NCBI GenBank assembly: GCA_963761175.1
Contig: CAVXFZ010000021.1
Location: 198,622-262,621, forward strand
Origin: an uncultured Actinomycetes bacterium
GTDB lineage: Bacteria > Actinomycetota > Acidimicrobiia > IMCC26256 > PALSA-610
Length of the DNA: 64,000 nt
Direction: 5' to 3'
The translations under genes were made by a program, and so were the position numbers. The notes under the pieces were generated by a model that was not told the origin of the DNA, did no database searches, and worked only from the letters and a program-made list of their open reading frames with translations. Positions 9,896 through 64,000 of this stretch are shown in pieces. How positions within the stretch are numbered: the stretch's first letter is position 1; every line of letters starts with the position of its first letter.

Positions 9896-13023
<3,128 letters not shown>

Positions 13024-13128
13024 TGGGTACGCGGACCCGCTTCCTTTCGACCGTGCTTCCCGCGGTAGCCTCGCTCATCCCCGCCATACAGCTGCCTCGC
13101 AGCTGCGTCGTTCGCAAGGAGCGTTGCG

Positions 13129-14625
13129 TTGTCTGCCGAGTCGCGTCATCCCGGCCGCTGGAGCGTGGCGCTCGCGGCCATCCTTTTCAGCGCGCTCGTC
13201 CCCTTCGTCACCGCGGCCCCCGCATCGGCCGCCGCACCGGCGCCACACGGCGACGACACGGTGCTCACCTTCGGCGCCGCAGGCTTCTACGGGTCGACCC
13301 ACGGTCGTCACCTCTCGGCGCCCATCGTCGGGATGGCGTCCACGCCGTCGGGCAAGGGCTACTGGCTCGCGGCCTCTGACGGTGGGGTGTTCTCCTTCGG
13401 CGACGCGACCTTCCACGGATCCGCGGGCGGCATCCATCTCAACCAGGCGATCATCGCGATCGTCGCGACTCCGGCCGGCAAGGGCTACTGGCTGGTCGGC
13501 TCCGACGGCGGCGTCTTCTCCTTCGGCGACGCGGCCTTCTACGGCTCGACGGGCTCGATGCACCTGAACGCACCGATCATCGGCATGACGGCGTCGCCTT
13601 CGGGTCACGGCTACTGGCTGATGGCACGCGACGGCGGCGTCTTCAGCTTCGGTGACGCGACGTTCCACGGTTCCACGGGCTCGATGCACCTGAACGCACC
13701 GATCGTGGGGATGGCCTCGACGGCGTCCGGTCATGGGTACTGGCTGGTGGCACGCGACGGCGGCATCTTCAGCTTCGGTGACGCGACGTTCCACGGTTCG
13801 ACCGGTTCGCTGCACCTTGCCGCGCCGATCGTCGGCATGGCGGCGACGGCGAGCGGGCACGGCTACTGGCTCGCGGCCCGCGACGGCGGCATCTTCAGCT
13901 TCGGCGTCGCGCCCTTCGAAGGCAGCGGTGCGGGTCACGTCTCGTCGATCGACCAGGTCGTGCAGATCACGTCGGTGCACACCGGGTACGGGTACCGGCT
14001 CCTCGTCCTGCCCCTGCCGTTCGACACGCCGCTGCTCTCACCCGGCGCGAGCGGTCCCGCGGTGGTCGCGCTGCAGCAGCACCTGCTCGCGCTCGGCTAC
14101 TGGCTCGACACCGCGAACGGCAACTACGGCCTGACGACGCAGCAGGCGGTCTACGCCTTCCAGAAGGTGGAGGGCCTGCCGCGGACCGGGATCGTCGACA
14201 TCCGCACGAGTCAGGCACTCGAGACCGCCCGACGCCCGGCCCCCCGTTCGACCGCGGGGTACGTCGCCGAGGTCGACCAGGAACACCAGGTCATCTTCAT
14301 CGAGCGCGACGGCGCCACGCTCTGGGTGATCAACACGTCGACCGGTTCGGGCATCCCCTACACGCTCGACGGCGTCCGGTACACGGCGCAGACGCCCAAC
14401 GGTCACTTCACGGTGATCAGCCAGATCAACGGGAACGACATCTCCCCGCTCGGGCAGCTGTGGCGGCCGAAGTTCTTCACCAGAACCGGCATCGCCTTCC
14501 ACGGATCGCCGTCGATCCCGCCGTATCCGGCGTCCCACGGCTGCGTGCGGATGACGAACGCGGCGATCGACTGGATCTGGGCGAGCAACACGATCCCGAT
14601 CGGGACCGCGGTCTGGGTCTACTGA
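13129..14625 (+). CDS. Secreted L,D-transpeptidase: signal peptide + six 42-aa repeats + PG-binding domain + YkuD catalytic domain
   Basis: TTG start with AAGGAG 7 nt upstream. Signal peptide ...TAAPASA|AAP. Repeats GYWL..DGG[VI]FSFGDA.F.GS. LALGYWLDTANGNYGLTTQQAVYAFQKVEGLPRTG (PG_binding_1-like). HGSPSIPPYPASHGCVRM (YkuD active site). Confidence 0.85.
   Translation: MSAESRHPGRWSVALAAILFSALVPFVTAAPASAAAPAPHGDDTVLTFGAAGFYGSTHGRHLSAPIVGMASTPSGKGYWLAASDGGVFSFGDATFHGSAGGIHLNQAIIAIVATPAGKGYWLVGSDGGVFSFGDAAFYGSTGSMHLNAPIIGMTASPSGHGYWLMARDGGVFSFGDATFHGSTGSMHLNAPIVGMASTASGHGYWLVARDGGIFSFGDATFHGSTGSLHLAAPIVGMAATASGHGYWLAARDGGIFSFGVAPFEGSGAGHVSSIDQVVQITSVHTGYGYRLLVLPLPFDTPLLSPGASGPAVVALQQHLLALGYWLDTANGNYGLTTQQAVYAFQKVEGLPRTGIVDIRTSQALETARRPAPRSTAGYVAEVDQEHQVIFIERDGATLWVINTSTGSGIPYTLDGVRYTAQTPNGHFTVISQINGNDISPLGQLWRPKFFTRTGIAFHGSPSIPPYPASHGCVRMTNAAIDWIWASNTIPIGTAVWVY
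13246..14008 (+). repeat. Coding tandem repeat, 126-bp (42-aa) period, about 6 units
   Basis: The Trp of GYWL recurs at aa 79, 121, 163, 205 and 247. DNA units starting 13555 and 13681 are nearly identical (tcgatgcacctgaacgcaccgatc...). Confidence 0.85.
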
Positions 14626-16235: not shown

Positions 16236-17212
16236 CGGACGGGCGCGGGAGCGGCGGCGAGGTCCCCGGCGGCGAGACCATCATCGTTCCCTCCGCCCTC
16301 GCGGGCGAGCGCGTCGATCGCGCCGTCGCGCTGCTCACCGGCTGGAGCCGGGCAGACGTACAGGTACTCGTCGAGGCGCACGAGGTGCTCGTCGACGGCG
16401 CGCCGGTCGCGAAGAGTCGGCGCCTCGAAGCCGGGGCTGTCGTCGAGCTCCTTGCGTCGCCGCGGCCCGACGCGCTCCCGGGCGCCGAATCGCTGCCGAT
16501 CGACGTCCGTTATGCCGATCCCGACATCGTCGTGGTGGCCAAGCCCGCGGGGCTCGTCGTGCACCCCGGCGCCGGAAACGAGCACGGAACGCTCGTGTCC
16601 GGCCTGCTCGCGCGCTTCCCCGAGATCGCGGCGGTGGGCGATCCCGCGCGACCGGGCATCGTGCACCGGCTCGACCGCGAGACGAGCGGCCTCCTCGTCG
16701 TGGCGCGTTCGCAGCGCGCGTACACGGCGCTCGTCGCGCAGCTCGCGGCGCGCTCCGTCGAGCGTCGCTACCAAGCGCTGGTGTGGGGCGTGCCCGACGC
16801 GCGCAACGGGGTGATCGACGCGCCGATCGGGCGATCCGAAGGTCGCCGCACGCGCATGGCAGTGCGCACCGGCGGCCGTCCGGCGCGCACCGCGTACACG
16901 GTGGAGCACACGTGGCGCGCACCACTCGTCGCCCAACTCGAATGCCGGCTCGAGACGGGACGCACGCACCAGATCCGCGTGCACCTCGCGGCGATCGGGC
17001 ATCCCGTCGTCGGCGACGGCACCTACCGCGGCCGGCGCGACGCGCTCACACTGGCGCGCCCGTTCCTCCACGCCGCGACCCTCGGCTTCGTCCACCCCGG
17101 CACCGGAGCCGCCGTGCACTTCGAGGAACCCTTGCCGGCCGACCTGGTCGCGGTGCTCGACACGCTCGGCCCGCCCGATCCGCCGCCCGCGCCGGGCCCG
17201 CCCCGTCGGTAG
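16232..17212 (+). CDS. rluD: RluA-family 23S rRNA pseudouridine synthase (RluD-like)
   Basis: GTG 16232 (GTGA overlap with the lspA stop) inside ORF 15800..17212. S4-like N-terminus and HRLDRETSGLLVVARS catalytic motif. Confidence 0.9.
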   Translation: MTDGRGSGGEVPGGETIIVPSALAGERVDRAVALLTGWSRADVQVLVEAHEVLVDGAPVAKSRRLEAGAVVELLASPRPDALPGAESLPIDVRYADPDIVVVAKPAGLVVHPGAGNEHGTLVSGLLARFPEIAAVGDPARPGIVHRLDRETSGLLVVARSQRAYTALVAQLAARSVERRYQALVWGVPDARNGVIDAPIGRSEGRRTRMAVRTGGRPARTAYTVEHTWRAPLVAQLECRLETGRTHQIRVHLAAIGHPVVGDGTYRGRRDALTLARPFLHAATLGFVHPGTGAAVHFEEPLPADLVAVLDTLGPPDPPPAPGPPRR

Positions 17213-17249
17213 CTCGCGCGCGCGTGCGGCGCGCGGCGACGGCGCGGGG

Positions 17250-17663
17250 TCAGCCCTGTTCGTGGCCGACGCGCGTGCGGCGCACGAGGTCGGCGAGGGT
17301 GAAACGGTCGAGCACCTTGCGGGTCTCCTCGGAGAGCTCGACCCACACCTCTTGCAGCACGCAGTGGCCCTCGCAGTGATCGTGGTCGGAGACGAGCGCC
17401 GGCTGCGGTCCTTCCACCGCCGCGACGATGTCGGCGAGCGTGATCTCGGCGGGCGTGCGGGCGAGCACGTAGCCGCCGCCGACGCCCCGCTTCGACCGCA
17501 CGAGCCCCGCGCCCTTCACCGAGAGCAGGATCTGCTCGAGATACGGCTGGGGGAGCCCGGTGCGCTCGGCGATCTCCTTCACGGAGGTCGGGCGCTCCTC
17601 GCCGTGGAGGGCCAACGACAGCAGCGCACGCGCCGCGTAGTCGCTGCGAGTCGAGACCTTCAC
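17250..17663 (-). CDS. Rrf2-family transcriptional regulator
   Basis: 137 aa, MKVSTRSDYAARALLSLA...SVKEIAERTGLPQPYLEQILLSVKGAGLVRSKRGVGGGY winged-helix signature. Confidence 0.9.
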   Translation of the reverse strand: MKVSTRSDYAARALLSLALHGEERPTSVKEIAERTGLPQPYLEQILLSVKGAGLVRSKRGVGGGYVLARTPAEITLADIVAAVEGPQPALVSDHDHCEGHCVLQEVWVELSEETRKVLDRFTLADLVRRTRVGHEQG

Positions 17664-17737
17664 GAGGGCGTTCCCGGCACCACCCCATCGTAACGGTCCG
17701 GTTCTCCAAACCGTTCGGGCCGGCGGTCCGGGCGGTT

Positions 17738-17743
17738 TAGCCT
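17738..17743 (+). promoter_or_regulatory. Candidate -10 (TAGCCT) for a leaderless transcript of the AlkP-family gene
   Basis: TAGCCT, then 6 nt (gcgggg), then ATG 17750. No SD. Confidence 0.35.
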
Positions 17744-17749
17744 GCGGGG

Positions 17750-18847
17750 ATGGCGATCGCGGTCCCCGTGCTCCCGCAGCTCGCCGGCGCCTCGGTCGCG
17801 GGGCTCGTGCCCGCGCTGGTCGGGGGCCGGCCGGCGCCGTGGCTGCCGGAAGCGGCGCGCGACGCGGCGAGCGTCGTGCTGCTCGTGCTCGACGGTCTCG
17901 GTGCCAACGAGATCGAGCGCCGGCCTTCCACCTTGCCGGTGCTCGCCGGCATGGGAGGAACGCGCATCACGACTGTCGTCCCGTCGACGACCGCGACCGC
18001 GCTGACGTCGATCGCGACCGGACTCGCGCCCGCGCAGCACGGTGTGCTCGGTTTCCGCATGCTCGTCGGCGACGACGTGCTCAACGTGCTGCGCTGGCAG
18101 ACCGACGGGCGCAAGCCGCCGGATCCGTTCACCGTGCAACGCCACGACGCGTTCCTCGGCCGCCCGGTGCCGGTCGTGACGCGCGGCGAGTTCCGCGATT
18201 CGGGGTTCTCGCAGGCTCACCTTCGCGGCGCGACGATCGTCGGTTGGCGCACGCCCTCGACGCTCGTCGAGCACTGCCGCCGGCTCGTTCTCGCGGGGGA
18301 GAAGTTCGTCTACGCCTACTACCCCGGCGTCGACGAGGTGGCGCACGAGTTCGGCCTGCTGGACGAGTACTACGCGCGTGAGCTCGGCGCGGTCGATGCG
18401 CTCGTGGGTGCCCTGCTCGATGCGCTCCCGGAGCGCGCGGTGCTACTCGTGACCGCCGATCACGGGCAGGTGCACCTCGAACCGGAATCGTGGGTCGAGA
18501 TCGACGACCTGCACCCGATGATCTCGGTGCAGGCCGGCGACGGCCGCTTCCGCTATCTGTACGCGAAGCATGGGATGGCCGGCGACCTCCTGGCCGCGGC
18601 GCACGAGCGCTTCGACGCGACGGCATGGGTCGTGAGTCGGCGCGAGCTCCTCGACGCCGGGTGGATCGGCCCGGGCGCGACGGGCACCGTGCCCGGTCGC
18701 ATCGGCGACGTCGTGCTCGCGGCGCGAGAACCGGTCGCCTTCGTCGATCCGGCGATGCCGCGCGAGCGGGGGCTGCGGTCCGCGCACGGCAGCCTCACGG
18801 CCGACGAGATGTGGGTGCCGCTGCGCTGCGCCCGGGGCCGGGCCTGA
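17750..18847 (+). CDS. Alkaline-phosphatase superfamily protein (nucleotide pyrophosphatase/phosphodiesterase-like)
   Basis: 365 aa, VLLVLDGLGANE...VVPSTTATALTSIATGLAPAQHG (metal-binding Asp and nucleophile Thr region), ...VTADHGQV. Confidence 0.75.
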   Translation: MAIAVPVLPQLAGASVAGLVPALVGGRPAPWLPEAARDAASVVLLVLDGLGANEIERRPSTLPVLAGMGGTRITTVVPSTTATALTSIATGLAPAQHGVLGFRMLVGDDVLNVLRWQTDGRKPPDPFTVQRHDAFLGRPVPVVTRGEFRDSGFSQAHLRGATIVGWRTPSTLVEHCRRLVLAGEKFVYAYYPGVDEVAHEFGLLDEYYARELGAVDALVGALLDALPERAVLLVTADHGQVHLEPESWVEIDDLHPMISVQAGDGRFRYLYAKHGMAGDLLAAAHERFDATAWVVSRRELLDAGWIGPGATGTVPGRIGDVVLAAREPVAFVDPAMPRERGLRSAHGSLTADEMWVPLRCARGRA

Positions 18848-32807: not shown

Positions 32808-34482
32808 GTGCGAGCGCGCAATCCTTGGCAACGTCGTCTCCTGGCCGTCGCGCTGACGGCCTCGATGCTGGCTCTCGTGCCGGCCCTGGCCCACCAACGG
32901 GGGGTGACGGTCCACGCGGCGGTGAGCGACCCGGGGGTGGGGAGCCAGCAGCCGAGCATCGTGTGGGAACCGGCGGCCCAGATGAACGCCGACCTCGACG
33001 CGATGGTCGCGGCCGGCATGACGTGGGTGCGCGCGGATTTCTACTGGGGTTCGATCGAACCGACCCGTGACCACTTCGTGTTCAACGCGACGGACAACTT
33101 CGTGCGCGCCGCCGCAGTCGCGGGGACTGCATGTGCTCGCGATGCCCGACTACACGCCTTCGTGGGCCCGCTCGGGCGGGACCGACAAGTACCCGCCGAA
33201 GAACCCGTCGGACTATGCCGCGTTCGTGAAGGTGCTCGCGCAGCGTTACGCGCCGATGGGCGTGCACGCGTGGGAGATCTGGAACGAACCGAACAACAAG
33301 ATGTTCTGGGCGCCGCGGGCCGACGCGGTCGCGTACACCGCGTTGCTGAAGCAGGCGTACACCGCCATCAAGAGCGCCGACGCGTCGGCGACCGTCGTGA
33401 GCGGCGGTCTGTCCCCTGCGAGCGACAGCGGCGGCAACATCTCGCCGCTCACGTTCACCGCGTCGATGTACGCGCACGGCGCGCACGGCAGCTTCGACGC
33501 GCTGGGCCTGCATCCGTACTCGTACCCGTACGCGCCGATGTACGTGGGCAGTTGGAACACCTTCTACCGCACGCCCGACCTGCACGCGCTCATGGCGCAG
33601 AACGGCGACAGCGCGAAGACGGTGTGGGCCACGGAGATCGGCTTCCCGACCGGATCCGGCTCGGGCGCGGTGAGTCAGCAGGCGCAGGCCGGTGACATCG
33701 TCGCCGCGATCGAGCAGTGGAGGAGCTGGTGGTTCCACGGGCCGATCATCTTCTACACGCTGCGCGACAAGGGCTCGAGTCAGAACGATGTCGATCAGAA
33801 CATGGGCCTGGAGAACCGCACCGGCGGGCCCAAGCCGTCGTACGTCGCGGTGCGCCAATTGCTGCTCGCACCGCAGGACGTGCGGGCGACGTCGACGAGC
33901 GGCGGCGCGAGCGTGACCTGGACCCCACCGGCGTGGGATGCGGGCAAGCCGATCACGCAATACAAGGTGGTCGCGAAGAACGGTGCGACCGCGATGGTTC
34001 GCGGCGACGCCCGCGCCGCCGACGTCGCGATCGGCAGCGGAGTGTCGACGAACTTCGTCGTCGTCCCGGTGCACGGGAGTGTCGACGGCATCGCGTCGTT
34101 GCCGTCGAACACGGTGGTCGCCGGGGCTCCCGCGACGCCGAGTGTCGAGCCCGGCATCGGCGTCGTCACGAAGCCGGCGACGGGCACGGTCACGATGCAG
34201 ATCCCGGTGAGCCTCAGCGCGCCCAGCACGGCCACGGTCACGGTGGGCTACCAGACGGCGTCGTACCCGCCGTCGGTGAACGCGCGGCCGGGCATCGACT
34301 ACGTCCTCACGCGGGGCACGCTGCGATTCAGCCCGGGCCAGACGCGCGCGTCGATCCCCGTGACGGTGAACGCCCGCCGCCGGACCCGGCCCAACGACGT
34401 CTTCTTCGTGCTGTTCGACCCGCCGACGAACGCGAACCTCGGCGGGTTCTACGGCATCGGGGTCGGGGTGATCGGGGGCTGA
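32808..34482 (+). pseudogene. Secreted clan GH-A glycoside hydrolase (GH5-like) + FN3-like + Calx-beta domain, frame broken near 33105-33122
   Basis: Signal peptide MRARNPWQRRLLAVALTASMLALVPALA. The N-terminal part is in ORF 32808..33695 up to DNFVRAA, continuing in ORF 33067..34482 (QSRGLHVLAMPDY...). WEIWNEPN (acid/base) and WATEIGFP (nucleophile). Calx-beta-like GIDYVLTRGTLRFSPGQTRASIPV. Length 1675 nt (3n+1). Confidence 0.8.
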
Positions 34483-51457: not shown

Positions 51458-53176
51458 GTGCGTCGTCAGCTCTGGCTCCTCATCGTCACGGTTGTGCTGG
51501 TCGTCGCCGCGTTCGCGGCGACGTTGCTCGGCAGCAGCCGCCCGCAGCTCGGTCTCGACCTCCAGGGCGGGATCTCGGTCGTGCTCTTCCCGGTGAAGGG
51601 CTCCGACCTCTCGACCCTCGACACCGCGCGGCAGATCATCTCCAACCGCGTCGACGCGATCGGGGTCGCGGAGCCGGAGGTGAACGTGCAGGGCAGCACG
51701 ATCGTCATCAACCTCCCCGGCGCGAAGAACCGCTCGCAGGCCCTCGCGCTCGTCGGCCGCACCGCCGAGCTCCAGTTCCGCGAGGTGCAGCAGTTCGTGC
51801 CGTACAGCGCGGTCGTCGGCGCGACCACCACCACAGCCAAGGGCGCGACGACGACCGCGAGTGGCGCGACCACGACGGCCGCGAGTGGCGCGACCACGAC
51901 GACCGCGACCGCGACGACCACGACGGCCAAGGGCGCGACGACCACGAAGAAGGGCGCGCTCGGTTTGCGCCTGAACCTGCAACCGATCTCCGCGACTCGC
52001 CCGCTCGCCGCCAGCGCGACCACCACGACCCCACCGCTCACTGCCGCGCCGGTGGTGGGCGCAACGACCACCACGGTCGCCGGCGCGACGACCACGACCG
52101 CCAAGGGCGCGACCACGACGGCGGCGCCCGCCACCACGACCACGACGCTCAAGCCGGGGTCGACGTGCAAGTCGCTGCTGACGCCGTCGGCGCAGATCAA
52201 GACGAACGAATCCGTGGTGCTGCCGTACAAGGCGTCGAAGGCGAGCGATCCGCAGGCGGGCTGCTACTTCCTCGGGCCGACGCTGCTCACCGGCCGGGAG
52301 ATCGGTAGCGCGGACGCGCGCTACGACCTCAGCCAGGGCGGTTGGTACGTGACCGTGCACTTCAAGAACAACGACTTCGCCGACAAGATCGGCGGCCCGG
52401 AAGTCGGCAAGCAGGTCGCGATCGTGCTCGACGGCGTCGTGCAGTCGGCGCCGCAGATCAACGCGGGCATCACCGGGAAAGACGTCCAGATCACCGGGTC
52501 CTTCTCGTCGAAGGAGGCCCACGATCTCGCGTTGGTGCTCCGCTACGGCGCCCTGCCGATCCAGTTCGACCAGAAGCAGCAGACCGTCGAGAACGTCTCG
52601 CCCGAGCTCGGCAAGGACCAACTCCGCGCGGGTCTCGCCGCCGGTCTCATCGGAATCGGGCTCGTCGCCCTCTACATGATCCTCTTCTACCGGTTGCTCG
52701 GCCTCGTCGTCTGGGTCGGCCTCATCCTCACCGCCATGATCTTCTTCAGCCTCGTCACCTATCTCGGCCACGCGCAGAACCTGACGCTGACCCTCGCGGG
52801 GGTGACGGGGATCATCGTCTCCGTCGGTGTCACCGTCGACAGCTATGTGGTCTATTTCGAACGGCTCAAGGACGAGGTGCGGATGGGGAAGACCATCCGC
52901 TCGTCGCTCGACTCCGGCTTCCGCCGCGCGTTCCGCACGATCGTCGCCGCCGACCTCGTCTCGCTGATCGGCGCGATCGTCCTCTACCTGCTCGCGGTCG
53001 GTTCGGTACGCGGCTTCGCGTACTTCCTCGGGATCTCGACGGCGCTCGACCTCGTACTCGCGTACTGCTTCATGCACCCGATGGTGTGGCTGCTCTCACG
53101 GCGCCCGACCCTGGTGCGGATGAAGGGCATCGGGATCGCCAGTGGTCTCGACGTGGTGCGGGAGATGTCGCGATGA
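51458..53176 (+). CDS. secD: Protein translocase subunit SecD (with Thr/Ala-rich insertion)
   Basis: 572 aa, LGLDLQGGISVVL, ...NRVDAIGVAEPEV..., C-terminal six-TM RND-like domain. Confidence 0.93.
   Translation: MRRQLWLLIVTVVLVVAAFAATLLGSSRPQLGLDLQGGISVVLFPVKGSDLSTLDTARQIISNRVDAIGVAEPEVNVQGSTIVINLPGAKNRSQALALVGRTAELQFREVQQFVPYSAVVGATTTTAKGATTTASGATTTAASGATTTTATATTTTAKGATTTKKGALGLRLNLQPISATRPLAASATTTTPPLTAAPVVGATTTTVAGATTTTAKGATTTAAPATTTTTLKPGSTCKSLLTPSAQIKTNESVVLPYKASKASDPQAGCYFLGPTLLTGREIGSADARYDLSQGGWYVTVHFKNNDFADKIGGPEVGKQVAIVLDGVVQSAPQINAGITGKDVQITGSFSSKEAHDLALVLRYGALPIQFDQKQQTVENVSPELGKDQLRAGLAAGLIGIGLVALYMILFYRLLGLVVWVGLILTAMIFFSLVTYLGHAQNLTLTLAGVTGIIVSVGVTVDSYVVYFERLKDEVRMGKTIRSSLDSGFRRAFRTIVAADLVSLIGAIVLYLLAVGSVRGFAYFLGISTALDLVLAYCFMHPMVWLLSRRPTLVRMKGIGIASGLDVVREMSR
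51818..52156 (+). repeat. Low-complexity coding repeat GATTT(T)A(K/S) inside secD
   Basis: GATTTTAK GATTTAS GATTTAAS GATTTTATATTTTAK GATTTKK ... GATTTTVA GATTTTAK GATTTAAPATTTTT, read from the ORF translation (aa 121-233). Confidence 0.7.
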
Positions 53177-55247: not shown

Positions 55248-57437
55248 ATGAAAACAGCCTTGCGCCGCCATCATCAGGAGCTCGACTCGGTGCTGCGGCC
55301 GCTCGTGGAGCGCTACCAAGCTCGGCACCCGAAGGCCGAGACGGCCCTCATCGAGCACGCCTACGAGGTCGCGCGCGACGCGCACAGCGATCAGGTGCGG
55401 CGCTCGGGCGACGCGTACATCACCCATCCCGTGGGCGTCGCCCTCGTGCTCGCCGATCTCGGCCTCGACGACGTCACCATCGCGGCGGCGCTGCTGCACG
55501 ACGCGGTGGAGGACACGCCGGTCAGCCTCGACGACCTCACGACCGAGTTCGGCCCGGATGTCGCCGGCATCGTCGACGGCGTCACGAAGTTGGAGCGCAT
55601 CCAATTCGACTCGAAGGAGGCGCAGCAGGCGGCGACGATGCGCAAGATGCTCGTCGCGATGGCGAAGGACATCCGCGTCCTCGTGATCAAGCTTGCCGAC
55701 CGCCTCCACAACATGCGCACGATCGCGTCGTTGCCGGAGGCGAAGCAGGAACGCATCGCGCAGGAGACGATCGACATCTATGCCCCGCTCGCGCACCGGC
55801 TCGGCATCGGCGACGTGAAGTGGCAGCTCGAAGACCTCGCCTTCGCGGTGCTGTACCCGAAGCGGTACGCGGAGATCGAGCAGATGGTGAGCCAGCGCGA
55901 TCCGGCGCGGGAGGAACAGCTCGACGACGTCATCGACGCCGTGCGCACGCGCCTCGCGGAGCTGCACGTCGACGCGGAGGTCAATGGCCGGCCGAAGCAT
56001 TACTGGTCGATCTACGAGAAGATGATCGTGCGGGGCAAGGAGTTCGACGAGATCCACGACCTGCTCGGCATCCGCGTGATCGTCGACTCGGTGAAGGACT
56101 GCTACGGCGCGCTCGGTTCGATCCATGCGCTCTGGCGTCCGGTGCAGGGTCGGTTCAAGGACTACATCGCGATGCCGAAGTTCAACCTCTACCAGTCGTT
56201 GCACACGACGGTGGTGGGGCCGGGCGGCAAGCCGGTCGAGTTCCAGATCCGCACGCGGGAGATGCACAGCCGGGCCGAGTACGGCGTCGCCGCGCACTGG
56301 GGCTACAAGGAGCAGCGTTCGCCGACCGAAGACCTCGCGTGGCTCCAGCGGCTCGTCGACTGGCAGCAGGAGACGAGCGACCCGGCCGAGTTCATGGCCA
56401 GCCTGAAGATCGACCTCGACCAGGACGAGGTCTACGTCTTCACACCGAAGGGCCAAGTGGTCACGCTGGCGAGCGGCGCGACGACGATCGACTTCGCGTA
56501 CGCGATCCACACCGAGATCGGCCATCGCTGCATCGGTGCGCGCGTCAACGGCCGGCTCGTCCCCCTCGACTCGACGCTGCAGTCGGGTGACTCGTGTGAG
56601 ATCTTCACGAGCAAGGTCACCGGCGCGGGCCCGAGCCGCGACTGGCTCCAGTTCGCGCAGACGCCCCGCGCCCGGGCGAAGATCCGCCAGTGGTTCTCGC
56701 GGGAGCGCCGCACCGACGCGATCGAGACCGGTCGCGACGATCTCGTGAAGGCGCTGCGCCGCGAGGGCCTGCCGGTCCAGAAGCTCCAGGGCTCGGCGAT
56801 GCTGCGCGACGTCGCCGAGAAGATGAACTACACGGACCTCGAATCGCTGCACGCCGCGATCGGGGAGAGCCACGTCTCCGCGAAGGCCGTCGCCCAGCGG
56901 GTGCAGCGCGAGCTGCGCGGCGGGGAGGAGCAGCTTCCCGTCACCGCGACTCGCCGCTCACGCACCCGGGGCCGCCGCAGCGGCGTCGGTGTGCACGTCG
57001 AGGGCCTCGACGACATCCTCGTGCGGCTCTCGCGCTGCTGCACCCCCGTTCCCGGCGACGAGATCATGGGCTTCGTCACCCGCGGCCGCGGCGTCTCCGT
57101 GCACCGCACCGACTGCGCCAACGGCGCCAGCCTCCGCACCCAGGTCGACCGGGTCATCGACGTCGAATGGGACCACGACGCCCCGAGCGCGTACGTCGTC
57201 GCGATCGACGTCGAGGCGCTCGACCGTTCCAAGCTGCTGCGCGACGTCGCCGACGTGCTCTCCGAGCACCACGTCAACATCCTCTCCTGCACCTCGCAGA
57301 CCCAGTCCGACCGCGTCGCCCGGCTGCGCTTCGAGTTCGAGCTCGCCGACCCCGGCCACCTCGACTCCCTGCTCGCGGCCGTGAAGCGGGTCGACTCGGT
57401 CTACGACGCCTCCCGCGTCCTGCCCGGCCGCAACTAG
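55248..57437 (+). CDS. rel: Bifunctional (p)ppGpp synthetase/hydrolase Rel (RelA/SpoT family)
   Basis: ATG 55248 in ORF 55068..57437. HD domain HPVGVA...LLHDAVEDT. Synthetase YQSLHTTVVGP. TGS (VYVFTPKGQVVTL) and ACT-like C-terminus. Confidence 0.95.
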   Translation: MKTALRRHHQELDSVLRPLVERYQARHPKAETALIEHAYEVARDAHSDQVRRSGDAYITHPVGVALVLADLGLDDVTIAAALLHDAVEDTPVSLDDLTTEFGPDVAGIVDGVTKLERIQFDSKEAQQAATMRKMLVAMAKDIRVLVIKLADRLHNMRTIASLPEAKQERIAQETIDIYAPLAHRLGIGDVKWQLEDLAFAVLYPKRYAEIEQMVSQRDPAREEQLDDVIDAVRTRLAELHVDAEVNGRPKHYWSIYEKMIVRGKEFDEIHDLLGIRVIVDSVKDCYGALGSIHALWRPVQGRFKDYIAMPKFNLYQSLHTTVVGPGGKPVEFQIRTREMHSRAEYGVAAHWGYKEQRSPTEDLAWLQRLVDWQQETSDPAEFMASLKIDLDQDEVYVFTPKGQVVTLASGATTIDFAYAIHTEIGHRCIGARVNGRLVPLDSTLQSGDSCEIFTSKVTGAGPSRDWLQFAQTPRARAKIRQWFSRERRTDAIETGRDDLVKALRREGLPVQKLQGSAMLRDVAEKMNYTDLESLHAAIGESHVSAKAVAQRVQRELRGGEEQLPVTATRRSRTRGRRSGVGVHVEGLDDILVRLSRCCTPVPGDEIMGFVTRGRGVSVHRTDCANGASLRTQVDRVIDVEWDHDAPSAYVVAIDVEALDRSKLLRDVADVLSEHHVNILSCTSQTQSDRVARLRFEFELADPGHLDSLLAAVKRVDSVYDASRVLPGRN

Positions 57438-57560
57438 CGCGTCCTCCGCTCCTTTCGCTCGCTCGGCGGCGAGTCTCTCGCCGGGCCCGCGGTCCAGCCT
57501 CAAGTCCCTTGTCCCCGGCGGTCGATACGGGATCGGGGGACAGAGAGGACCACGCGGCGC

Positions 57561-58886
57561 GTGCGGGATGACCGACAGATCCGAATCGGGTCCCGATCGG
57601 GAGACCGGTCGGGTTCGGTCGCGCTCGGATCCGAAGCCGGACTGACCCTGCTCGAGCTCGTGGTCGCGCTCAGCGTCTTCGTCGTGATGGTCCTCGGCGT
57701 CGCCGCCACCATCGACTCGGGCCTCAACCTCACCCGGAACAACCGGCAGCGGTCGGTCGCCGCCAACCTGGCCAGCCAGGAGATGGACACCGTCCGCCAG
57801 ACCGACTTCACCGCGCTCACCGCCCGCACCGTGACCGAGGTCGTCGACGGATCCACGTACACGATCAATCGCTCGCTCACCTGGGTGTCGAAGAGCGCGA
57901 CCAGTGGACCGTGCAACGGCGTCACGAGCGACCCGCAGATGCTGCGGGTACGCGTCACCGTCACGTGGGCGACGATGCACGGCCTCGAGCCGGTGCGTTC
58001 CGACACGCAACTCACGCCGCCCGTCGGCGCGTACAGCGCCGACTCCGGTCACATCGCGGTCACCGTGTTGGACCGCGACGGCGGGGGTGCCTTCGGGACG
58101 TCGGTGCAGATCACCGGACCCGCGACGCAGAGCCAGCCGACCAACGACGACGGCTGCGCCTTCTTCGCGTTCCTCACTCCCGGCACCTACACGGTCTCGT
58201 TGAACTCGGTCGGTTACGTCGACCGCCAGAGCACGCAGAACCCGAGCCAGACGGTCGGGGTCACCGTCGGCAACGTCAGCAGCGTTCAGTTCGACTACGA
58301 CCAGGCCGCGTCCCTCGACCTCGCGCTCACGCCCGACGCCGGCGGCGCGGTTCCGAGCGACGTGCCGATCACGCTCGGCAACACGTCGTTCCTGCCGATC
58401 GGTGTGAAGACATACGCCGGCACCGGTGCGACTCGCACGATCGGGAGCCTCTTTCCGTCGGGTGACGGGTACACCGCGTGGGCGGGCTCGTGCGCCGACG
58501 CCGACCCCGAGGGTCAGATCGTGAGCGGCGGCGGCGCGTACTGGCCCGACGCCCAGCGCGCTCCCGCGTTCGAGACGACGCCGGGCGGGGCGACGACGGG
58601 ATCGGTCGCGCTGAAGTCGGCGTCGATCTCGGTCCTCGCCGGTGGCCTGACGCCGGTCTCCGGCGCGACGGTGATCGCGACCCACGCAGCCGACCAGTCG
58701 TGCGCGGCAGGGGAGACCTACACGCTCGGGACGACCGACGCGGGTGGCCTGCTCACCGCGGCGCTGCCGTACGGGACCTGGACGATCTCGGTGCAGTCGC
58801 AGCTCGCCCTCTCGGGCACGTGGCCGAATCTCGTGCTCGACCCCAACGACACCACCACGCCCGCGCTCGAGGTCGACACCCAATGA
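57561..58886 (+). CDS. Pseudopilin-like protein: prepilin-type N-terminal signal + two carboxypeptidase-regulatory-like Ig domains
   Basis: ...GSEAG|LTLLELVVALSVFVVMVLG (Gly-1, Glu+5, hydrophobic helix) after a 27-aa leader. VTVLDRDGGGAFGTSVQITG...GCAFFAFLTPGTYTVSL and a second similar module near the C-terminus. Confidence 0.7.
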   Translation: MRDDRQIRIGSRSGDRSGSVALGSEAGLTLLELVVALSVFVVMVLGVAATIDSGLNLTRNNRQRSVAANLASQEMDTVRQTDFTALTARTVTEVVDGSTYTINRSLTWVSKSATSGPCNGVTSDPQMLRVRVTVTWATMHGLEPVRSDTQLTPPVGAYSADSGHIAVTVLDRDGGGAFGTSVQITGPATQSQPTNDDGCAFFAFLTPGTYTVSLNSVGYVDRQSTQNPSQTVGVTVGNVSSVQFDYDQAASLDLALTPDAGGAVPSDVPITLGNTSFLPIGVKTYAGTGATRTIGSLFPSGDGYTAWAGSCADADPEGQIVSGGGAYWPDAQRAPAFETTPGGATTGSVALKSASISVLAGGLTPVSGATVIATHAADQSCAAGETYTLGTTDAGGLLTAALPYGTWTISVQSQLALSGTWPNLVLDPNDTTTPALEVDTQ

Positions 58887-59536
58887 GGCAGCTGCGGCTT
58901 CTCCGGGCGCGGCGCGGCGAGCGGGGCTCGTCACTGCTCGAGCTGATGACCACGATCTTCCTGCTCACGGTCGTGATGGGCGCGGTGATGGTCGGAGTGT
59001 TCTCGGCTCAGAACGCGATCAGCGGGCAGCAGTTGCGGCTCGAGAACCTCGATCAAGCCCGCACGCTGATGTCGGCGCTCACGAAAGACGTCCGCACCGC
59101 GGTGCGGCTCACGGCGTCGTCGTCTCCCTTCACGGTCGCCGACAAGAACCACGCGGTCTTCTACGCGAACCTCGACACGACGGGCGCGCCGCGCAAAGTC
59201 GACCTCTCGATCGACGCGCAGAGCCGGCTCATCGAGTCGGTGTGGACCGCCGATGCCGGCACGACGGCACCGAACTACACGTACACCGGCGCGCCAACCG
59301 TAAGGCTCGTCGGTCGGTACGTGAACAACTCGGCCACGAACCCGCTCTTCACGTACCTCGACTCCGACGGCAACCAACTGCCGAACACACCACTGGGCTC
59401 GTCTGACCGGCTCGCCGTGAAGGCCGTAGAGATCCGACTCATCGTGAAGAAGACGACGAACGCGTACCTCAACGACACGACGCTCGTGAACCAGGTTCGC
59501 CTGCCGAACCTCGACTACAACGCGGTGGCCGGATGA
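58883..59536 (+). CDS. Pseudopilin-like protein (PilW/GspJ-like size class)
   Basis: ATGA overlap. MRQLRLLRARRGERG|SSLLELMTTIFLLTVVMGAVMVG (Gly-1, Glu+5). 217 aa. Confidence 0.7.
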   Translation: MRQLRLLRARRGERGSSLLELMTTIFLLTVVMGAVMVGVFSAQNAISGQQLRLENLDQARTLMSALTKDVRTAVRLTASSSPFTVADKNHAVFYANLDTTGAPRKVDLSIDAQSRLIESVWTADAGTTAPNYTYTGAPTVRLVGRYVNNSATNPLFTYLDSDGNQLPNTPLGSSDRLAVKAVEIRLIVKKTTNAYLNDTTLVNQVRLPNLDYNAVAG

Positions 59537-61200
59537 AGCTTCGCAAGCACGACGAGAGCGGGTTCGCGCTCGCGACGGTGATGATCGTGTCCCTCGTGCT
59601 GAGCATGCTCGCCCTCGCCACGCTCGATTACGGCATCGGCTCGCAGAACATCAGCCACCACGACCAGAACTGGAACGCCGCGCTCGCCGCCGCGGAGGCG
59701 GGGATCGACGACTACGTGTTCCGCCTCAACGACAACGGCAACTACTGGCAGTACAACGCGACCAACCCGCCGCCCGACGGGAACCAGGCGTTCACGAAGT
59801 ACGTCCAGGTGTCGGGCAGCAAGACGACGTCGAAGTTCCGCTACGACGTCGACACGTCGAAGCTCGCGACGAACGGCACGATCGCGATCAGCTCGACCGG
59901 GCGAGTCGGCAACGCGGCCCGGACGGTGCGTGCGTCGCTGCGCCGTCGCAGCTTCCTGGACTATCTCTACTTCACCGACTACGAGACGGTCGATCCGGCC
60001 CTGTACACCGGATCACCGTTCACGCCCGCGCAGGCGCAGACGTACTGCGCGCTGCACTACTACGGCGGATTCGGCAACCAGCGCGACGAGCCGAGCCGCT
60101 CCGACTTCAACTTCGACAGCGATTCCAACGGCAAGTACTGCGCCGACATCGTCTTCGTCGCTGCCGACAAGATCAACGGCCCGATGCACACGAACGACGC
60201 GTTCATGGTGTGCGGCACGCCCGAGTTCCTCGGCGACACGTCGACCAGCTGGACGGGTTCGGGTGGCGTGCGTTACCGCGACGGCTGCCCGACGAGCCAC
60301 CCGGTGTTCGCCAACCCCGGCGACCCCGTGTACGCGACACCGCTGACGATGCCCCCGAGCAACTCGTCGATCAAGGCGTCGACCGACTCCGGAACCGGCG
60401 GTTGCCTCTACACCGGCCCGACACGCATCAAGCTCCTCGCGAACGGGCAGATGACCGTGAACAGCCCGTTCTCGAAGCAGACGAACAACGCGGCCTGTCC
60501 GAAGAACGGGACCGCGCCCCTGCCGACCGACGGCGTGATCTACGTCCAGAACGTGCCTTCGACGAGCAGCGATCCCAACTACGCGAACGGCTGCCCGTAC
60601 AGCGTGAACGGCCGCAGCCACCCGCTCGGCATGCCGATCTCGAACGACAAGAACACCTACGGCTGCCGTAACGGCGACGTCTTCATCGAGGGATCGCTCA
60701 ACGGACAGCTCACGGTCGCGGCGGAGAACAACATCGAGATCACGTGGAACCTGCAGTACAACAGCGGCGTCTCCGGCACCGATCTGCTCGGCCTGATCGC
60801 GAACAACTTCATCGAGGTGTACCACCCGGTGAGGTGCTCGAGCGGCACGTCGTCGGGCTGCAACCTCAACGCCAACTTCCCGAACGAGACGCCCCGCAAC
60901 GCTACATTCAGCTCGCCGACCATCCAGGCCGCGATGCTGTCGCTCAGCCACTCGATCCGCGTGCAGGAGTGGGCGGTCGGGGCGCCGCTCGGCACGTTGC
61001 ACGTCAACGGTGTGATCGCGCAGCGCTACCGCGGGCCGGTAGGCACGAACAGCGGCGGCACGATCGTGTCGGGATTCGTGAAGGATTACAACTACGACCT
61101 CCGGCTGAAATACCTGTCGCCGCCGAAGTTCCTCGACCCGGTCGCTTCGCAGTGGGGCATCGTCACCTGGGCGGAGATCACGGTCCCGAACGGTTACTGA
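59533..61200 (+). CDS. Large pseudopilin-like protein with PilX-N-like N-terminus and about 500-aa uncharacterised C-terminal domain
   Basis: ATGA overlap. MKLRKHDESG|FALATVMIVSLVLSMLALA (no Glu+5, as in GspK/PilX-type minor pilins), then ALAAAEAGIDDY. Several Cys pairs. No family recognised for the remainder. Confidence 0.7.
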   Translation: MKLRKHDESGFALATVMIVSLVLSMLALATLDYGIGSQNISHHDQNWNAALAAAEAGIDDYVFRLNDNGNYWQYNATNPPPDGNQAFTKYVQVSGSKTTSKFRYDVDTSKLATNGTIAISSTGRVGNAARTVRASLRRRSFLDYLYFTDYETVDPALYTGSPFTPAQAQTYCALHYYGGFGNQRDEPSRSDFNFDSDSNGKYCADIVFVAADKINGPMHTNDAFMVCGTPEFLGDTSTSWTGSGGVRYRDGCPTSHPVFANPGDPVYATPLTMPPSNSSIKASTDSGTGGCLYTGPTRIKLLANGQMTVNSPFSKQTNNAACPKNGTAPLPTDGVIYVQNVPSTSSDPNYANGCPYSVNGRSHPLGMPISNDKNTYGCRNGDVFIEGSLNGQLTVAAENNIEITWNLQYNSGVSGTDLLGLIANNFIEVYHPVRCSSGTSSGCNLNANFPNETPRNATFSSPTIQAAMLSLSHSIRVQEWAVGAPLGTLHVNGVIAQRYRGPVGTNSGGTIVSGFVKDYNYDLRLKYLSPPKFLDPVASQWGIVTWAEITVPNGY

Positions 61201-61282
61201 GACCTCGATCCGGGCGGGCCGCGGGCCGCGGGCCGGGATCGCGCGCCGCCCAAACGATCACCGGTCCGGCGGGGCGCGCCGG

Positions 61283-61288
61283 TAGCAT
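61283..61288 (+). promoter_or_regulatory. Candidate -10 (TAGCAT) for a (near-)leaderless hisS transcript
   Basis: TAGCAT, then 8 nt, then ATG 61297. No SD. Confidence 0.3.
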
Positions 61289-61296
61289 CGACCCCC

Positions 61297-62580
61297 ATGT
61301 CCGAGTCCGGAGGGGTCTTCCGCGCGCCCTACGGCACGCACGATGTCCTCGCGCCCGAGTCCGACCGCTGGCAGGCGCTCGTCGCCCGCTTCGCGGACCG
61401 GGCCCGGCGCTTCGGCTACGGGCTGGTGGTGACGCCGATCTTCGAGCACGCGGAGGTGTTCCACCGGGTCGGTGAGCAGACCGACGTCGTCAGCAAGGAG
61501 ATGTACGAGTTCTCCGACCGGGGCGGGCGGCGACTCGCGCTGCGGCCGGAGGGCACCGCGTCGGTGGTGCGGGCGTTCGTGCAGCACCACCCGCCGGTGC
61601 CGTGGAAGTGCTGGTACCTCGCGCCGAACTTCCGGGCCGAACGGCCGCAGAAGGGCCGGTACCGCCAGCACTACCAGCTCGGGGCGGAGGTGCTCGGGGT
61701 CGACGACCCCGACGTCGACGTCGAGATGATCAGTCTGCTCGCGGGCTTCCTGCGCGACGACCTCGGGCTCTCGGGGCTGCGGCTGCTGCTGAACTCGATG
61801 GGCGACGCGGAAAGCCGCGCCCGGCACCGAGACGTGCTGCTCGCGTACTTCGCCGAGCACGCCCACCTGCTCGGCGACGACATGGCGCGCGCCGAGCTCA
61901 ACCCGCTGCGCATCCTCGATTCGAAGCGCCCCGACTGGCAGGCGATGCTCGACGCCGCCCCGCAGCTGGGCCATCACCTGAGCGACGAGTCGGCCGAGCA
62001 CTTCGCGCGAGTGCAGGCAGGCCTCGGGGCGCTCGGAATTCCGTACGAGATCGCGCCGCGGCTCGTACGCGGCTTCGACTACTACACGCGCACCACGTTC
62101 GAGGTTCAGAGCGACGCGATCGACGCGGCCCAGAACGCGCTCGGCGGCGGTGGACGCTACGACCGGCTCGCGCAAGACATGGGCGGGCCGCCGACGCCGT
62201 CGATCGGCTTCGGCGCCGGCATCGAGCGCATCCTGCTCGCGTGCGACGCCGACGGCGCGCTGCCCGCGCCGGCGCGGCGGGTCGACGTGTTCGTCGTCGA
62301 CATGCTGGGCAACGAGGATGCCGCCGTCCTGCTGCAGGAACTGCGCAGCCGCGGGCTCGCGGCCGATCGCGCCTACGGGGGACGCTCGGTGAAGAAGCAG
62401 TGGGCCGCAGCCGACAAGTCGGGCGCAGCCTTCGGCGTGATGCTCGCACCGAAGGAGGCCGCGGCTGGGCGGGTCGGCGTGAAGGACCTCGTGTCGGGCG
62501 AGCAGGTAGAGATCGAACGCAGCGAGGTCGCGGGCTGGCTGCTCGCGCGACCCATGGGATCGGAGCACGAGTCCAGATGA
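61297..62580 (+). CDS. hisS: Histidine--tRNA ligase
   Basis: 427 aa, class II motifs ...RLALRPEGTASVVRAF..., YYTRTTFEV, GGGRYDRL, GFGAGIERI. Confidence 0.95.
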   Translation: MSESGGVFRAPYGTHDVLAPESDRWQALVARFADRARRFGYGLVVTPIFEHAEVFHRVGEQTDVVSKEMYEFSDRGGRRLALRPEGTASVVRAFVQHHPPVPWKCWYLAPNFRAERPQKGRYRQHYQLGAEVLGVDDPDVDVEMISLLAGFLRDDLGLSGLRLLLNSMGDAESRARHRDVLLAYFAEHAHLLGDDMARAELNPLRILDSKRPDWQAMLDAAPQLGHHLSDESAEHFARVQAGLGALGIPYEIAPRLVRGFDYYTRTTFEVQSDAIDAAQNALGGGGRYDRLAQDMGGPPTPSIGFGAGIERILLACDADGALPAPARRVDVFVVDMLGNEDAAVLLQELRSRGLAADRAYGGRSVKKQWAAADKSGAAFGVMLAPKEAAAGRVGVKDLVSGEQVEIERSEVAGWLLARPMGSEHESR

Positions 62581-64000
62581 TGCGTACGCACCGCGCCGGC
62601 GACCTCCGGCTCGCGGACGAGGGGAGTGAAGTCACACTCTGCGGCTGGGTCGCGCACCGTCGCGACCACGGCGGTGTGATCTTCCTCGACGTGCGCGACG
62701 TCGCGGGCATCGTGCAGGTGGTCGTCGACCCGGCCGTCGAGGGATGCGAGGCGGCCCGCCGCGTGCGCGCGGAGTGGGTGCTGCGGATCGAGGGTGCCGT
62801 CCGCGCGCGGCCGTCCGGAACTGCGAACGCCGACATGGTCACGGGCGAGGTCGAGGTCGCGGCGAGCGCGGTGTCGGTGCTCTCGGAATCGGAGCCGATC
62901 CCGTTCCCGCTCGACGACCGCACCGACGTCGACGAGGTGCTTCGGCTCCGCTACCGCTATCTCGATCTGCGCCGCGCGCCGATGCAGCGCAACCTGCGTA
63001 CGCGCGCCGCGGTGAACGCGGGCATACGCGCCGCGATGGACGCCGAAGGGTTCGTGGAGATCGAGACGCCGATGCTCATCGCGTCGACGCCTGAGGGTTC
63101 GCGCGACTTCGTGGTGCCGTCGCGCCTGCAACCGGGCTCGTTCTACGCCCTACCGCAGAGCCCTCAGCTCTTCAAGCAGCTGCTCATGGTCGGCGGCTTC
63201 GACCGCTACTACCAGATCGCCCGCTGCATGCGCGACGAAGACCTGCGCGCCGACCGGCAGTTCGAGTTCGTCCAGCTCGACGCGGAGATGAGCTTCGCCG
63301 AGCAGGACGACGTGCTCGCAGTGATCTCACGCGCAGTGCTCGCGGCCGCGGAAGCGGTGCGCGGCGAGGCCCCCCCACCGGTCGAGCGGATGACGTGGCT
63401 CGAATCGATGGAGCAGTACGGCACCGACAAGCCCGACCTCCGATTCGCGATGACGCTCGTCGACCTCGCCGAGGTCTTCGCGGCGACGGAGTTCCGCGCG
63501 TTCGCCGGCGCGGAGTGCGTGAAGGGTATCTGTGTCGCGGGCGGCGGCGACGCGGGGCGGTCGCGTCTCGACGCGCTCGTCGATCGGGCGAAGGAGCTCG
63601 GCGCGGCCGGTCTGGTGTGGATGCGGGTGAACGCGGAAGGCCGGCTCGAGTCGCCGGTGGTGAAGTTCCTCTCGGAGGCCGAGCAGCTCGGCCTCGGCGA
63701 CGCGCTCGGCGCGCGCCCCGGCGACCTGTTGCTCATCGCGGCGGGGCCGCGCGCGACGACACGCGCCGTGCTCGGCCAGATCCGCCTCGACCTCGGGCGC
63801 CCGCCGGTCGGCGACGGGCCGCTGCGGTTCGTGTGGGTCGTCGACTTCCCGCTCTTCGAGGGGCTCGGCGACGACGGCCGGCCGACCCCTGCCCACCACC
63901 CGTTCACGATGCCGCATCCCGACGACCTCGACCGGCTCGAATCGGATCCGCTGTCGGTGCGGTCGCAGTCGTACGACTTGGTGGTGAACGGATGGGAGCT
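62577..64000 (+). CDS. aspS: Aspartate--tRNA ligase, 5' part (continues beyond window)
   Basis: ATG 62577 (ATGA overlap with the hisS stop). My own translation gives [25 protein letters not shown]..., [39 protein letters not shown]. Absent from the ORF track because it has no stop in the window. Confidence 0.93.

Follow-up and report, generated by a model that had tools for sequence, protein, structure and literature searches.

A three-gene minor-pilin set between rel and hisS in uncultured Acidimicrobiia, a probable tip complex of a type IVa pilus

A 64-kb stretch of DNA from an uncultured member of the Acidimicrobiia (contig CAVXFZ010000021.1; the whole stretch of 64,000 nucleotides that was analyzed is referred to as the window) carries three genes between rel and hisS, here designated g1, g2, and g3, whose products begin like prepilins. 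The question raised by this locus is what three such proteins may do when no assembly machinery is encoded beside them. The answer favored here, at a probability of about 0.82, is that the trio makes up the core minor pilins of a type IVa pilus with its machinery encoded elsewhere in the genome. By analogy with characterized systems, the three proteins would act as a complex, similar to PilV/PilW/PilX, that primes an uncharacterized, monoderm actinobacterial type IVa pilus of uncultured Acidimicrobiia and forms its tip. Type IVa pili of Actinobacteria have been predicted by genomic surveys and never studied, whereas Tad-type pili account for all the actinobacterial type IV pili studied so far (PMC6916266, PMC6668835). 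Among metagenome-assembled genomes (MAGs) of Acidimicrobiia, the occurrence of type IVa pil genes has been noted (PMC12008989).

Three coupled prepilin genes between rel and hisS

An earlier note on this DNA had described three translationally coupled prepilin-type open reading frames (ORFs) between rel and hisS. Their coordinates, ATGA overlaps, and N-termini are all borne out, and the genes run as follows (aa, amino acids).

57561..58886, + strand: g1, PilV/GspI-like modular minor pilin of 441 aa (ORF, motif, Pfam and NCBIfam profiles)
58883..59536, + strand: g2, small minor pilin of 217 aa, PilW/GspJ counterpart by position (translation, N_methyl; ATGA overlap with the g1 stop)
59533..61200, + strand: g3, PilX/GspK/ComZ-like capping pilin of 555 aa (PilX_N, AlphaFold2 model, Foldseek)

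Two 4-nt ATGA start/stop overlaps couple g1 to g2 and g2 to g3 translationally, and the G+C content at third codon positions (GC3) of the trio is 0.89–0.94, similar to that of adjacent genes. A reading of the three as chance ORFs or mis-called genes was rejected because GC3, conservation, coupling, and synteny speak otherwise.

All three N-termini have the form of a class-III (prepilin) signal, with a hydrophobic α1N segment of about 20 residues after the conserved Gly at position −1 (the expected cleavage site, marked below by a slash). That of g1 reads GSEAG/LTLLELVVAL, with Gly-1 and Glu+5, and the mature protein is predicted to start as G27/LTLLELVVALSVFVVMVLGVAA. Its 27-aa leader, as the earlier note had it, holds because the GTG at 57561 is the sole in-frame ATG/GTG/TTG start 5′ of the motif and thus the only possible one. 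The g2 N-terminus, RGERG/SSLLELMTT, follows a 15-aa leader and likewise has Glu+5 (mature start G15/SSLLELMTTIFLLTVVMGAVMVGV), while g3 begins MKLRKHDESG/FALATVMIV, where the leader has 10 aa and position +5 is Thr, and then NWNAALAAAEAGIDDY (mature start G10/FALATVMIVSLVLSMLALA).

These traits are conserved among homologues, which for all family counts given here were taken from fetched loci. Both Gly-1 and Glu+5 are present in 77/77 g1 sequences, which also share four conserved Cys. Gly-1 is conserved in about 80 homologues of g2, and Glu+5 occurs in 63/67 scored motifs. In the g3 family, Gly-1 is conserved in about 82 homologues, and none of 84 sequences has E at +5, the residue there being T, A, or V, in agreement with the initial description of g3 as a PilX_N-like subunit devoid of Glu+5. 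More than 90 g3 alignment columns are invariant among 59 sequences, and eight Cys are conserved, seven of them invariantly and one nearly so. The conserved Cys of g1 and g3 would fit exported proteins.

Profile searches support N-terminal pilin domains at the family level, much more strongly than for the window proteins singly. N_methyl (PF07963) is matched by 55/57 members of the g1 family (E≤0.01; best 4.5e-8) and 42/54 of the g2 family (E≤0.01; best 4.9e-8), and PilX_N (PF14341) by 44/59 of the g3 family (best E 1e-8). The window proteins themselves mostly score below the cut-offs: N_methyl gives 15.8 bits with g1 and 19.8 bits (E 5.8e-4) with g2 against a cut-off of 21.2, and PilX_N gives 18.2 bits (E 0.0025; cut-off 25.5) over residues 9–58 of g3. 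Among the NCBIfam profiles, PilV (TIGR02523) matches g1 at E 4e-6, below cut-off, and GspI (TIGR01707) at E 1e-4 (22.6 bits, cut-off 44.35); the GspJ profile reaches 13.5 bits on the trio proteins, against a cut-off of 64.85. CarboxypepD_reg is above its cut-off in g1 (E 4.4e-9), where it covers two stretches, and is matched by 54/57 members of the g1 family. Of the two immunoglobulin (Ig)-like modules that had been proposed for g1, the first is supported by this match; the second is weakly supported, by the second CarboxypepD_reg stretch and a DUF4198 match at residues 364–412.

Searches of PDB with the single sequences of g1, g2, and g3 returned nothing meaningful, and family profiles found pilin α1N helices and one Ig-like adhesin domain only. 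The g2 profile, in particular, matched nothing but α1N helices from type IV pilins of known structure (geopilin, MshA, PilE1, and PilA; E 1e-3 to 2e-2). The g3 family is large: it has more than 1,165 word-index matches, and a search of a metagenome library of 1.84 billion proteins at E≤1e-3 gave 4,194 clusters, formed at 50% identity. The suggestion of the earlier note that the trio may be undescribed is not supported; public pipelines already label some family members “Tfp pilus assembly protein PilX” or “pseudopilin PulG” and others [quoted passage not shown].

Genomic context of the homologues and location of the pilus machinery

The trio had been regarded as an orphan, apart from any assembly machinery. 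The window itself agrees with the lack of machinery: tblastn with a relative’s PilB, PilT, PilC, two pilins, PilD, PilM, PilN, and PilO matched the trio only, and Pfam searches with 30 other window ORFs returned housekeeping genes, except for two ORFs without a match. A six-frame regular-expression scan of the whole 64 kb for class-III-signal-like N-termini likewise found only g2, g3, and one low-complexity run in SecD, with g1 being found only by a slightly looser pattern than g2 and g3. The SecD match is a Thr/Ala run near 51839; the periplasmic part of this protein (51458–53176) contains a low-complexity insert rich in Thr and Ala, TTTTAKGATTTASGATTTAASGATTTT.

Relatives of the trio were collected in a scan of species representatives (one genome per GTDB species). 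A relative is encoded at 389 loci, and the context was classed for the best 80 of these, all of them uncultured MAGs labeled Acidimicrobiia, “Actinomycetes”, Actinomycetota, or Nanopelagicales. The classes are given below with the identity of g3 to the window protein.

Trio inside a pil operon: 31/80 loci, 45–56% identity
Trio between rel and hisS: 30/80 loci (L066 counted in), 51–77% identity
Trio elsewhere: 13/80 loci, 48–67% identity
Flanks too short for classification: 6/80 loci, 60–65% identity

In the window’s own clade, which accounts for 30 of these loci, the trio lies between rel and hisS, and in 31 others the trio forms part of a pil operon with the order aroE-pilB-pilT-pilC-pilins-g1-g2-g3-pilD-pilMNO-aroC. 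A complete type IVa pilus operon with an orthologous trio is seen in locus L004/L040, on a 1.98-Mb contig. The order there is yceG, aroE, a 288-aa gene, PilB (MshEN+T2SSE), PilT, PilC, and two N_methyl pilins, followed by g1, g2, g3, PilD (A24_N_bact+Peptidase_A24), a small helix-turn-helix (HTH) gene, PilM, PilN, PilO, and aroC. The trio proteins of this operon have 464, 224, and 542 aa and are 50%, 47%, and 56% identical to g1, g2, and g3 of the window, respectively. L004 and 30 further loci have the prepilin peptidase gene pilD directly 3′ of the orthologous trio. In many relatives, homologues of the trio thus sit within complete type IVa pilus operons, which are known from their genes alone, and the orphan status claimed for the trio is not supported.

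The associated machinery is of type IVa and not of the Tad kind, as shown by the MshEN N-domain of the ATPase and by the presence alongside it of PilT and of one PilC with two domains. The adjacent ATPase family is named “type IV-A pilus assembly ATPase PilB” by NCBI. With the PilB of L004 as a query, at least 120 matches were obtained, every one at 70% identity or more and none of them from a contig with a trio homologue, a result that says nothing for or against a PilB on those contigs. Minor pilins of the Tad/Flp (type IVc) class, TadE and TadF, were considered for the trio and ruled out by the type IVa-type machinery of the orthologous operons.

[quoted passage not shown] The weak GspI match of g1 points in this direction, as does the resemblance of ComZ and other Thermus minor pilins to T2SS pseudopilins (PMC6561018). 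However, the orthologous operons hold PilT, PilM/N/O, and tandem pilin genes, no GspL/M or secretin was found among the tblastn and Pfam matches to the operons, and NCBI’s name for the ATPase family is that of a pilus assembly ATPase. Actinomycetota are, moreover, presumed monoderm and thus lack the outer membrane that a T2SS crosses. Taken together, a secretion pseudopilus is extremely improbable.

A neighbor-joining tree of g3 places the in-operon sequences at its base, and the rel-hisS and “elsewhere” copies make up one derived clade, within which the window protein is sister to L006. The simplest history is a single exit from the operon with later duplications.

Where the machinery lies in the window’s clade is suggested by the gene order of relatives, which downstream of the trio reads hisS-aspS-rarA-alaS-ruvX-yceG-aroE; in the basal lineages, the pil operon begins right after aroE. 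In L066 (“Acidimicrobiia bacterium KatS3mg009”, a frameshift-rich contig of 2.96 Mb), the order is apt-rel-g1-g2-g3-hisS, and the N-terminus of PilB (124 aa, 56% identity, E 2e-36) starts 9.6 kb after g3, just beyond aroE and at the far end of the fetched stretch. This N-terminus matched only short, frameshifted fragments, four of which led to loci L086–L089. L087, reached through a PilB fragment close to that of L066, reads hisS-aspS-rarA-alaS-ruvX-yceG-aroE-pilB-pilT-pilC, followed further on by three pilin genes, pilD, and the HTH gene; L088 has the block from aspS onward with pilB-pilT-pilC and ends in pilin-pilD-pilM; L089 has the block from aspS and reaches pilC. No trio is present within the fetched stretches of L087, L088, and L089, and the pil operons of these three would therefore need a trio encoded elsewhere. 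In the window’s clade, the pil operon thus kept its place between aroE and aroC, and the trio alone was shifted, by about 10 kb in the upstream direction, to the gap between rel and hisS within the same conserved housekeeping block: L066 has pilB 9.6 kb downstream, and L087–L089 have trio-less operons at that place. The machinery of the source genome would then most likely lie about 7–8 kb beyond the 3′ end of the window, between aroE and aroC, with pilB expected to begin some 8–9.5 kb past the hisS stop, near 71–72 kb in window coordinates. The trio looks orphaned because the window stops inside aspS, some 7–8 kb short of the predicted pilB.

A truly orphaned trio would be one whose machinery has been lost, the three genes being either a decaying relic or taken over by another system, for example a Tad pilus or a different secretion route. 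The lack of machinery in 64 kb and the 13/80 loci that have a trio but neither machinery nor rel/hisS within 10 kb are what such a history would leave. Against it stand the intact ORFs, the high GC3, the retained translational coupling, and the invariant g3 columns noted above, as well as the pilB of the same-clade genome L066 and the three relatives with a trio-less pil operon at the corresponding place. Loss of the machinery is, on balance, very improbable. For the annotation of these MAGs, the rel-hisS gap should be checked when the trio is missing from a pil operon. More generally, where a fixed window happens to end can make genes in it look like “orphans”.

In many long-read MAG contigs of this clade (L002, L066, L086–L089), hisS, secD, rel, and pilB are split into frameshifted pieces. 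Gene-level absence calls in such assemblies are unreliable because even housekeeping genes are frameshifted.

Several further features of the trio loci and pil operons were observed. Extra prepilin-like gene pairs stand in tandem with the trio in L024 (4820–8000) and in L019 and L028 (~11860–13500), and two full copies of the trio occur on different contigs in MAG CAVVXW01 (L028 and L031) and in MAG CAZXCB01 (L018 and L027). Several minor-pilin sets per genome are therefore possible, as in cyanobacteria. The slot between aroE and pilB holds a conserved 288-aa protein without a Pfam match in L004 (1500–2366) and a PatA_N (PATAN, PF14332) protein in L088 (8836–9663) and L089 (8919–9881); a role in pilus regulation is possible for the product of this slot. 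Between pilD and pilM, a small HTH_17 (excisionase/MerR-like) gene is conserved in L004 (12787–12993), L086 (15968–16171), and L087 (20372–20555). In L004, the pil operon is separated from aroC by an inserted group II intron reverse transcriptase (RVT_1+GIIM; 16872–18221). Finally, an Acidimicrobiia-type trio (g3 51–65% identity) is present in L013, L018, L023, L027, and L061 on contigs titled Bordetella parapertussis, Bifidobacteriaceae, and Burkholderiales, which are probably mislabeled or mis-binned records.

Predicted fold of g3 and comparison with known tip complexes

The most distinctive member of the trio is g3, the AlphaFold2 model of which, computed from the 59-sequence alignment, is confident (mean predicted local distance difference test (pLDDT) 87.5, predicted template modeling (pTM) score 0.81). 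The model consists of a helix (residues 9–67), a four-stranded sheet (101–153), a β-rich insertion at ~160–535 (~380 residues), and a last strand (541–549); the insertion is thus modeled as solenoid-like and set within a pilin fold. In a Foldseek search of 350,542 PDB chains, the sole significant target was ComZ of Thermus thermophilus (6QVI), with an E value of 1.7e-7 and a probability of 1.0 but a global template modeling score of only 0.22; among these chains, no β-solenoid protein besides ComZ matched the model. ComZ was not found by sequence among all PDB sequences, either by phmmer with g3 or with the 59-sequence profile, and its DNA-contacting lysines are not mappable onto g3 because sequence similarity is absent.

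ComZ, a GspK-like pilin with an inserted β-solenoid, binds DNA as well as PilA2, the minor pilin encoded next to it, and has been argued to be a tip pilin; it is needed for transformation and dispensable for piliation (PMC6561018). A preprint describes a β-solenoid architecture in all cyanobacterial PilX homologues, proposes it as a tip plug that replaces PilY1, and finds the fold serving motility and competence pili alike (bioRxiv 10.64898/2026.02.12.705559).

A narrower version of the tip-complex assignment would dedicate the type IVa pilus to DNA uptake, with g3 as a tip DNA receptor and g1 and g2 as PilA2-like partners. Its appeal lies in ComZ being the sole significant structural match of g3 and a DNA-binding protein required for transformation (PMC6561018). 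On the other hand, g3 and ComZ share no sequence similarity, the same fold occurs in motility pili of cyanobacteria (bioRxiv 10.64898/2026.02.12.705559), neither comEA nor comEC was seen, be it beside the trio or within the viewed operons, and adhesion is suggested more by the Ig-like modules that g1 carries. A pilus dedicated to DNA uptake is accordingly a possible but unlikely specialization of the tip complex.

The proposal of a V/W/X- or I/J/K-style tip complex, already made in the earlier note, is in keeping with the gene order, the N-terminal motifs, and the ComZ/GspK-like fold of g3, and four known systems are instructive for comparison. One is ComZ with PilA1-3 of T. thermophilus HB27. 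Like g3, ComZ has ~550 aa, an N-terminal hydrophobic helix, a GspK-like pilin domain, and a solenoid inserted into the sheet, and each is encoded beside small minor pilins. Thermus differs in being diderm with a PilQ secretin, whereas the host here is presumed monoderm, and PilA2 has no Ig-like modules, which are present in g1.

A second is the core minor-pilin priming complex, FimU-PilV-PilW-PilX of Pseudomonas aeruginosa and GspH-I-J-K of type II secretion, which has the same V-W-X gene order as the trio. In PilV/W/X as in the trio, Glu5 is present in subunits one and two and missing from the last; the PilX_N motif occurs in g3, and g1 has a sub-threshold likeness to PilV/GspI. The position of the ancestral trio beside pilin genes and pilD also matches the P. 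aeruginosa-type set. The trio differs in having three genes rather than four and no PilY1, in the size of g3 (~3x that of a proteobacterial PilX), in the modular g1 with its Ig-like domains, and in its detachment from the operon in the window’s lineage.

The PilX1-3/HpsA-type PilX proteins of cyanobacteria, compared by description, have a bulky β-solenoid before the C-terminal strand of the pilin fold, as does the g3 model. PilY1 is absent from both systems and several minor-pilin sets per genome are possible in both, though cyanobacteria are a different phylum. The modular minor pilins PilB and PilC of Streptococcus sanguinis, like the trio proteins as proposed here, belong to a monoderm type IVa pilus and carry bulky extra domains fused to a pilin module, and long leaders occur in both systems (PMC6916266). 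Their extra domains are vWA and lectin domains, in contrast to CarboxypepD_reg/Ig-like modules and a β-solenoid, and no homology was found.

Four points weigh against the assignment of the trio as the tip set of a type IVa pilus. Taken alone, the window proteins do not reach the curated cut-offs that Pfam and NCBIfam set on the N_methyl, PilX_N, and PilV profiles. The equation of g2 with PilW/GspJ is by position, coming from gene order only, and the single-sequence model of g2 has a pLDDT of 44. Canonical tip complexes have four subunits, and no FimU/GspH-like adapter was identified here. Lastly, the machinery of the source genome is an inference from relatives, as the sequence read ends at 64000.

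If the assignment is right, actinobacterial type IVa pili would use a three-gene V/W/X-like tip set composed of a ComZ-like solenoid cap and a PilV-like subunit with Ig-like modules in addition to g2, and the idea that a solenoid PilX replaces PilY1 would extend from Thermus and cyanobacteria to a third phylum.

Proposed role, flanking genes, and minor observations

In type IV filaments, core minor pilins form a tip complex with a Glu5-less subunit as its cap, and assembly proceeds from tip to base (PMC10191384). The steps proposed for the trio follow this established biology. Each of g1, g2, and g3 would enter the membrane by its hydrophobic α1N helix, and the prepilin peptidase PilD would cut each leader after the conserved Gly. 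The three mature proteins would then bundle through their N-terminal α1 helices, with g3 outermost, where it would serve as cap, plug, or receptor, and g1 and g2 beneath it; g3 is placed at the tip because it has no Glu5 and carries a bulky β-solenoid in its pilin fold. The resulting complex would prime polymerization of the major pilin by PilB/PilC/PilMNO, and PilT would retract the fiber. Contacts, whether in adhesion or with DNA, would likely be made by the g3 solenoid and by the Ig-like modules that g1 carries.

The flanks of the trio and the putative ribosome-binding site of g1 are as follows.

55248..57437 (start approximate), + strand: rel, (p)ppGpp synthetase/hydrolase, upstream flank (ORF; RelA/SpoT domain set in the syntenic L003 gene)
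57543..57549, + strand: Shine-Dalgarno-like GAGAGGA, 11 nt 5′ of the g1 GTG (read from the sequence; putative role)
61297..62580, + strand: hisS, downstream flank, 96 nt past g3 (ORF; synteny with L002, L003, and 30 GTDB loci)
62580..64000, + strand: aspS, 5′ part, running off the window end (tblastn with L003 AspS: 73% identity over 473 aa)

The spacer between rel and g1 is 123 nt long. A terminator scan found no + strand terminator-like site in this spacer or along the trio. A sigma-70-like promoter was likewise not found within 57300–61400, and Rfam gave no match in the whole window or in the spacer. The trio may now form part of an apt-rel-trio-hisS transcription unit, an idea prompted by the lack of terminator-like sites between rel and g1 and across the trio. 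Priming would in that case be uncoupled from the pil operon and tied to the stringent-response locus, rel-linked transcription during starvation would set pilus number, and extra trios would prime distinct pili from one machine. This extension is improbable as it stands. The priming of functionally distinct pili from one machine by extra minor-pilin sets has recently been proposed for cyanobacteria. Apart from such control, the relocation beside rel is a mild curiosity.

The remainder of the window is a block of mainly housekeeping genes. It includes murC, ftsZ, divIVA, ileS, an L,D-transpeptidase gene, lspA, dnaE, cysS, thrS, and an elongation factor G (EF-G) paralogue, continues with phosphatidylinositol mannoside (PIM)-synthesis genes, pdxS/T, cox genes, ruvC/B, and secD, and closes at the 3′ side with apt and rel, then the trio and hisS, and last aspS, of which the window has the 5′ part. 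An ORF of 471 aa at 33067–34482 has a strong coding signal and only sub-threshold GH5/GH39, fn3, and Calx-beta matches; its product may be a secreted glycoside hydrolase-like protein.

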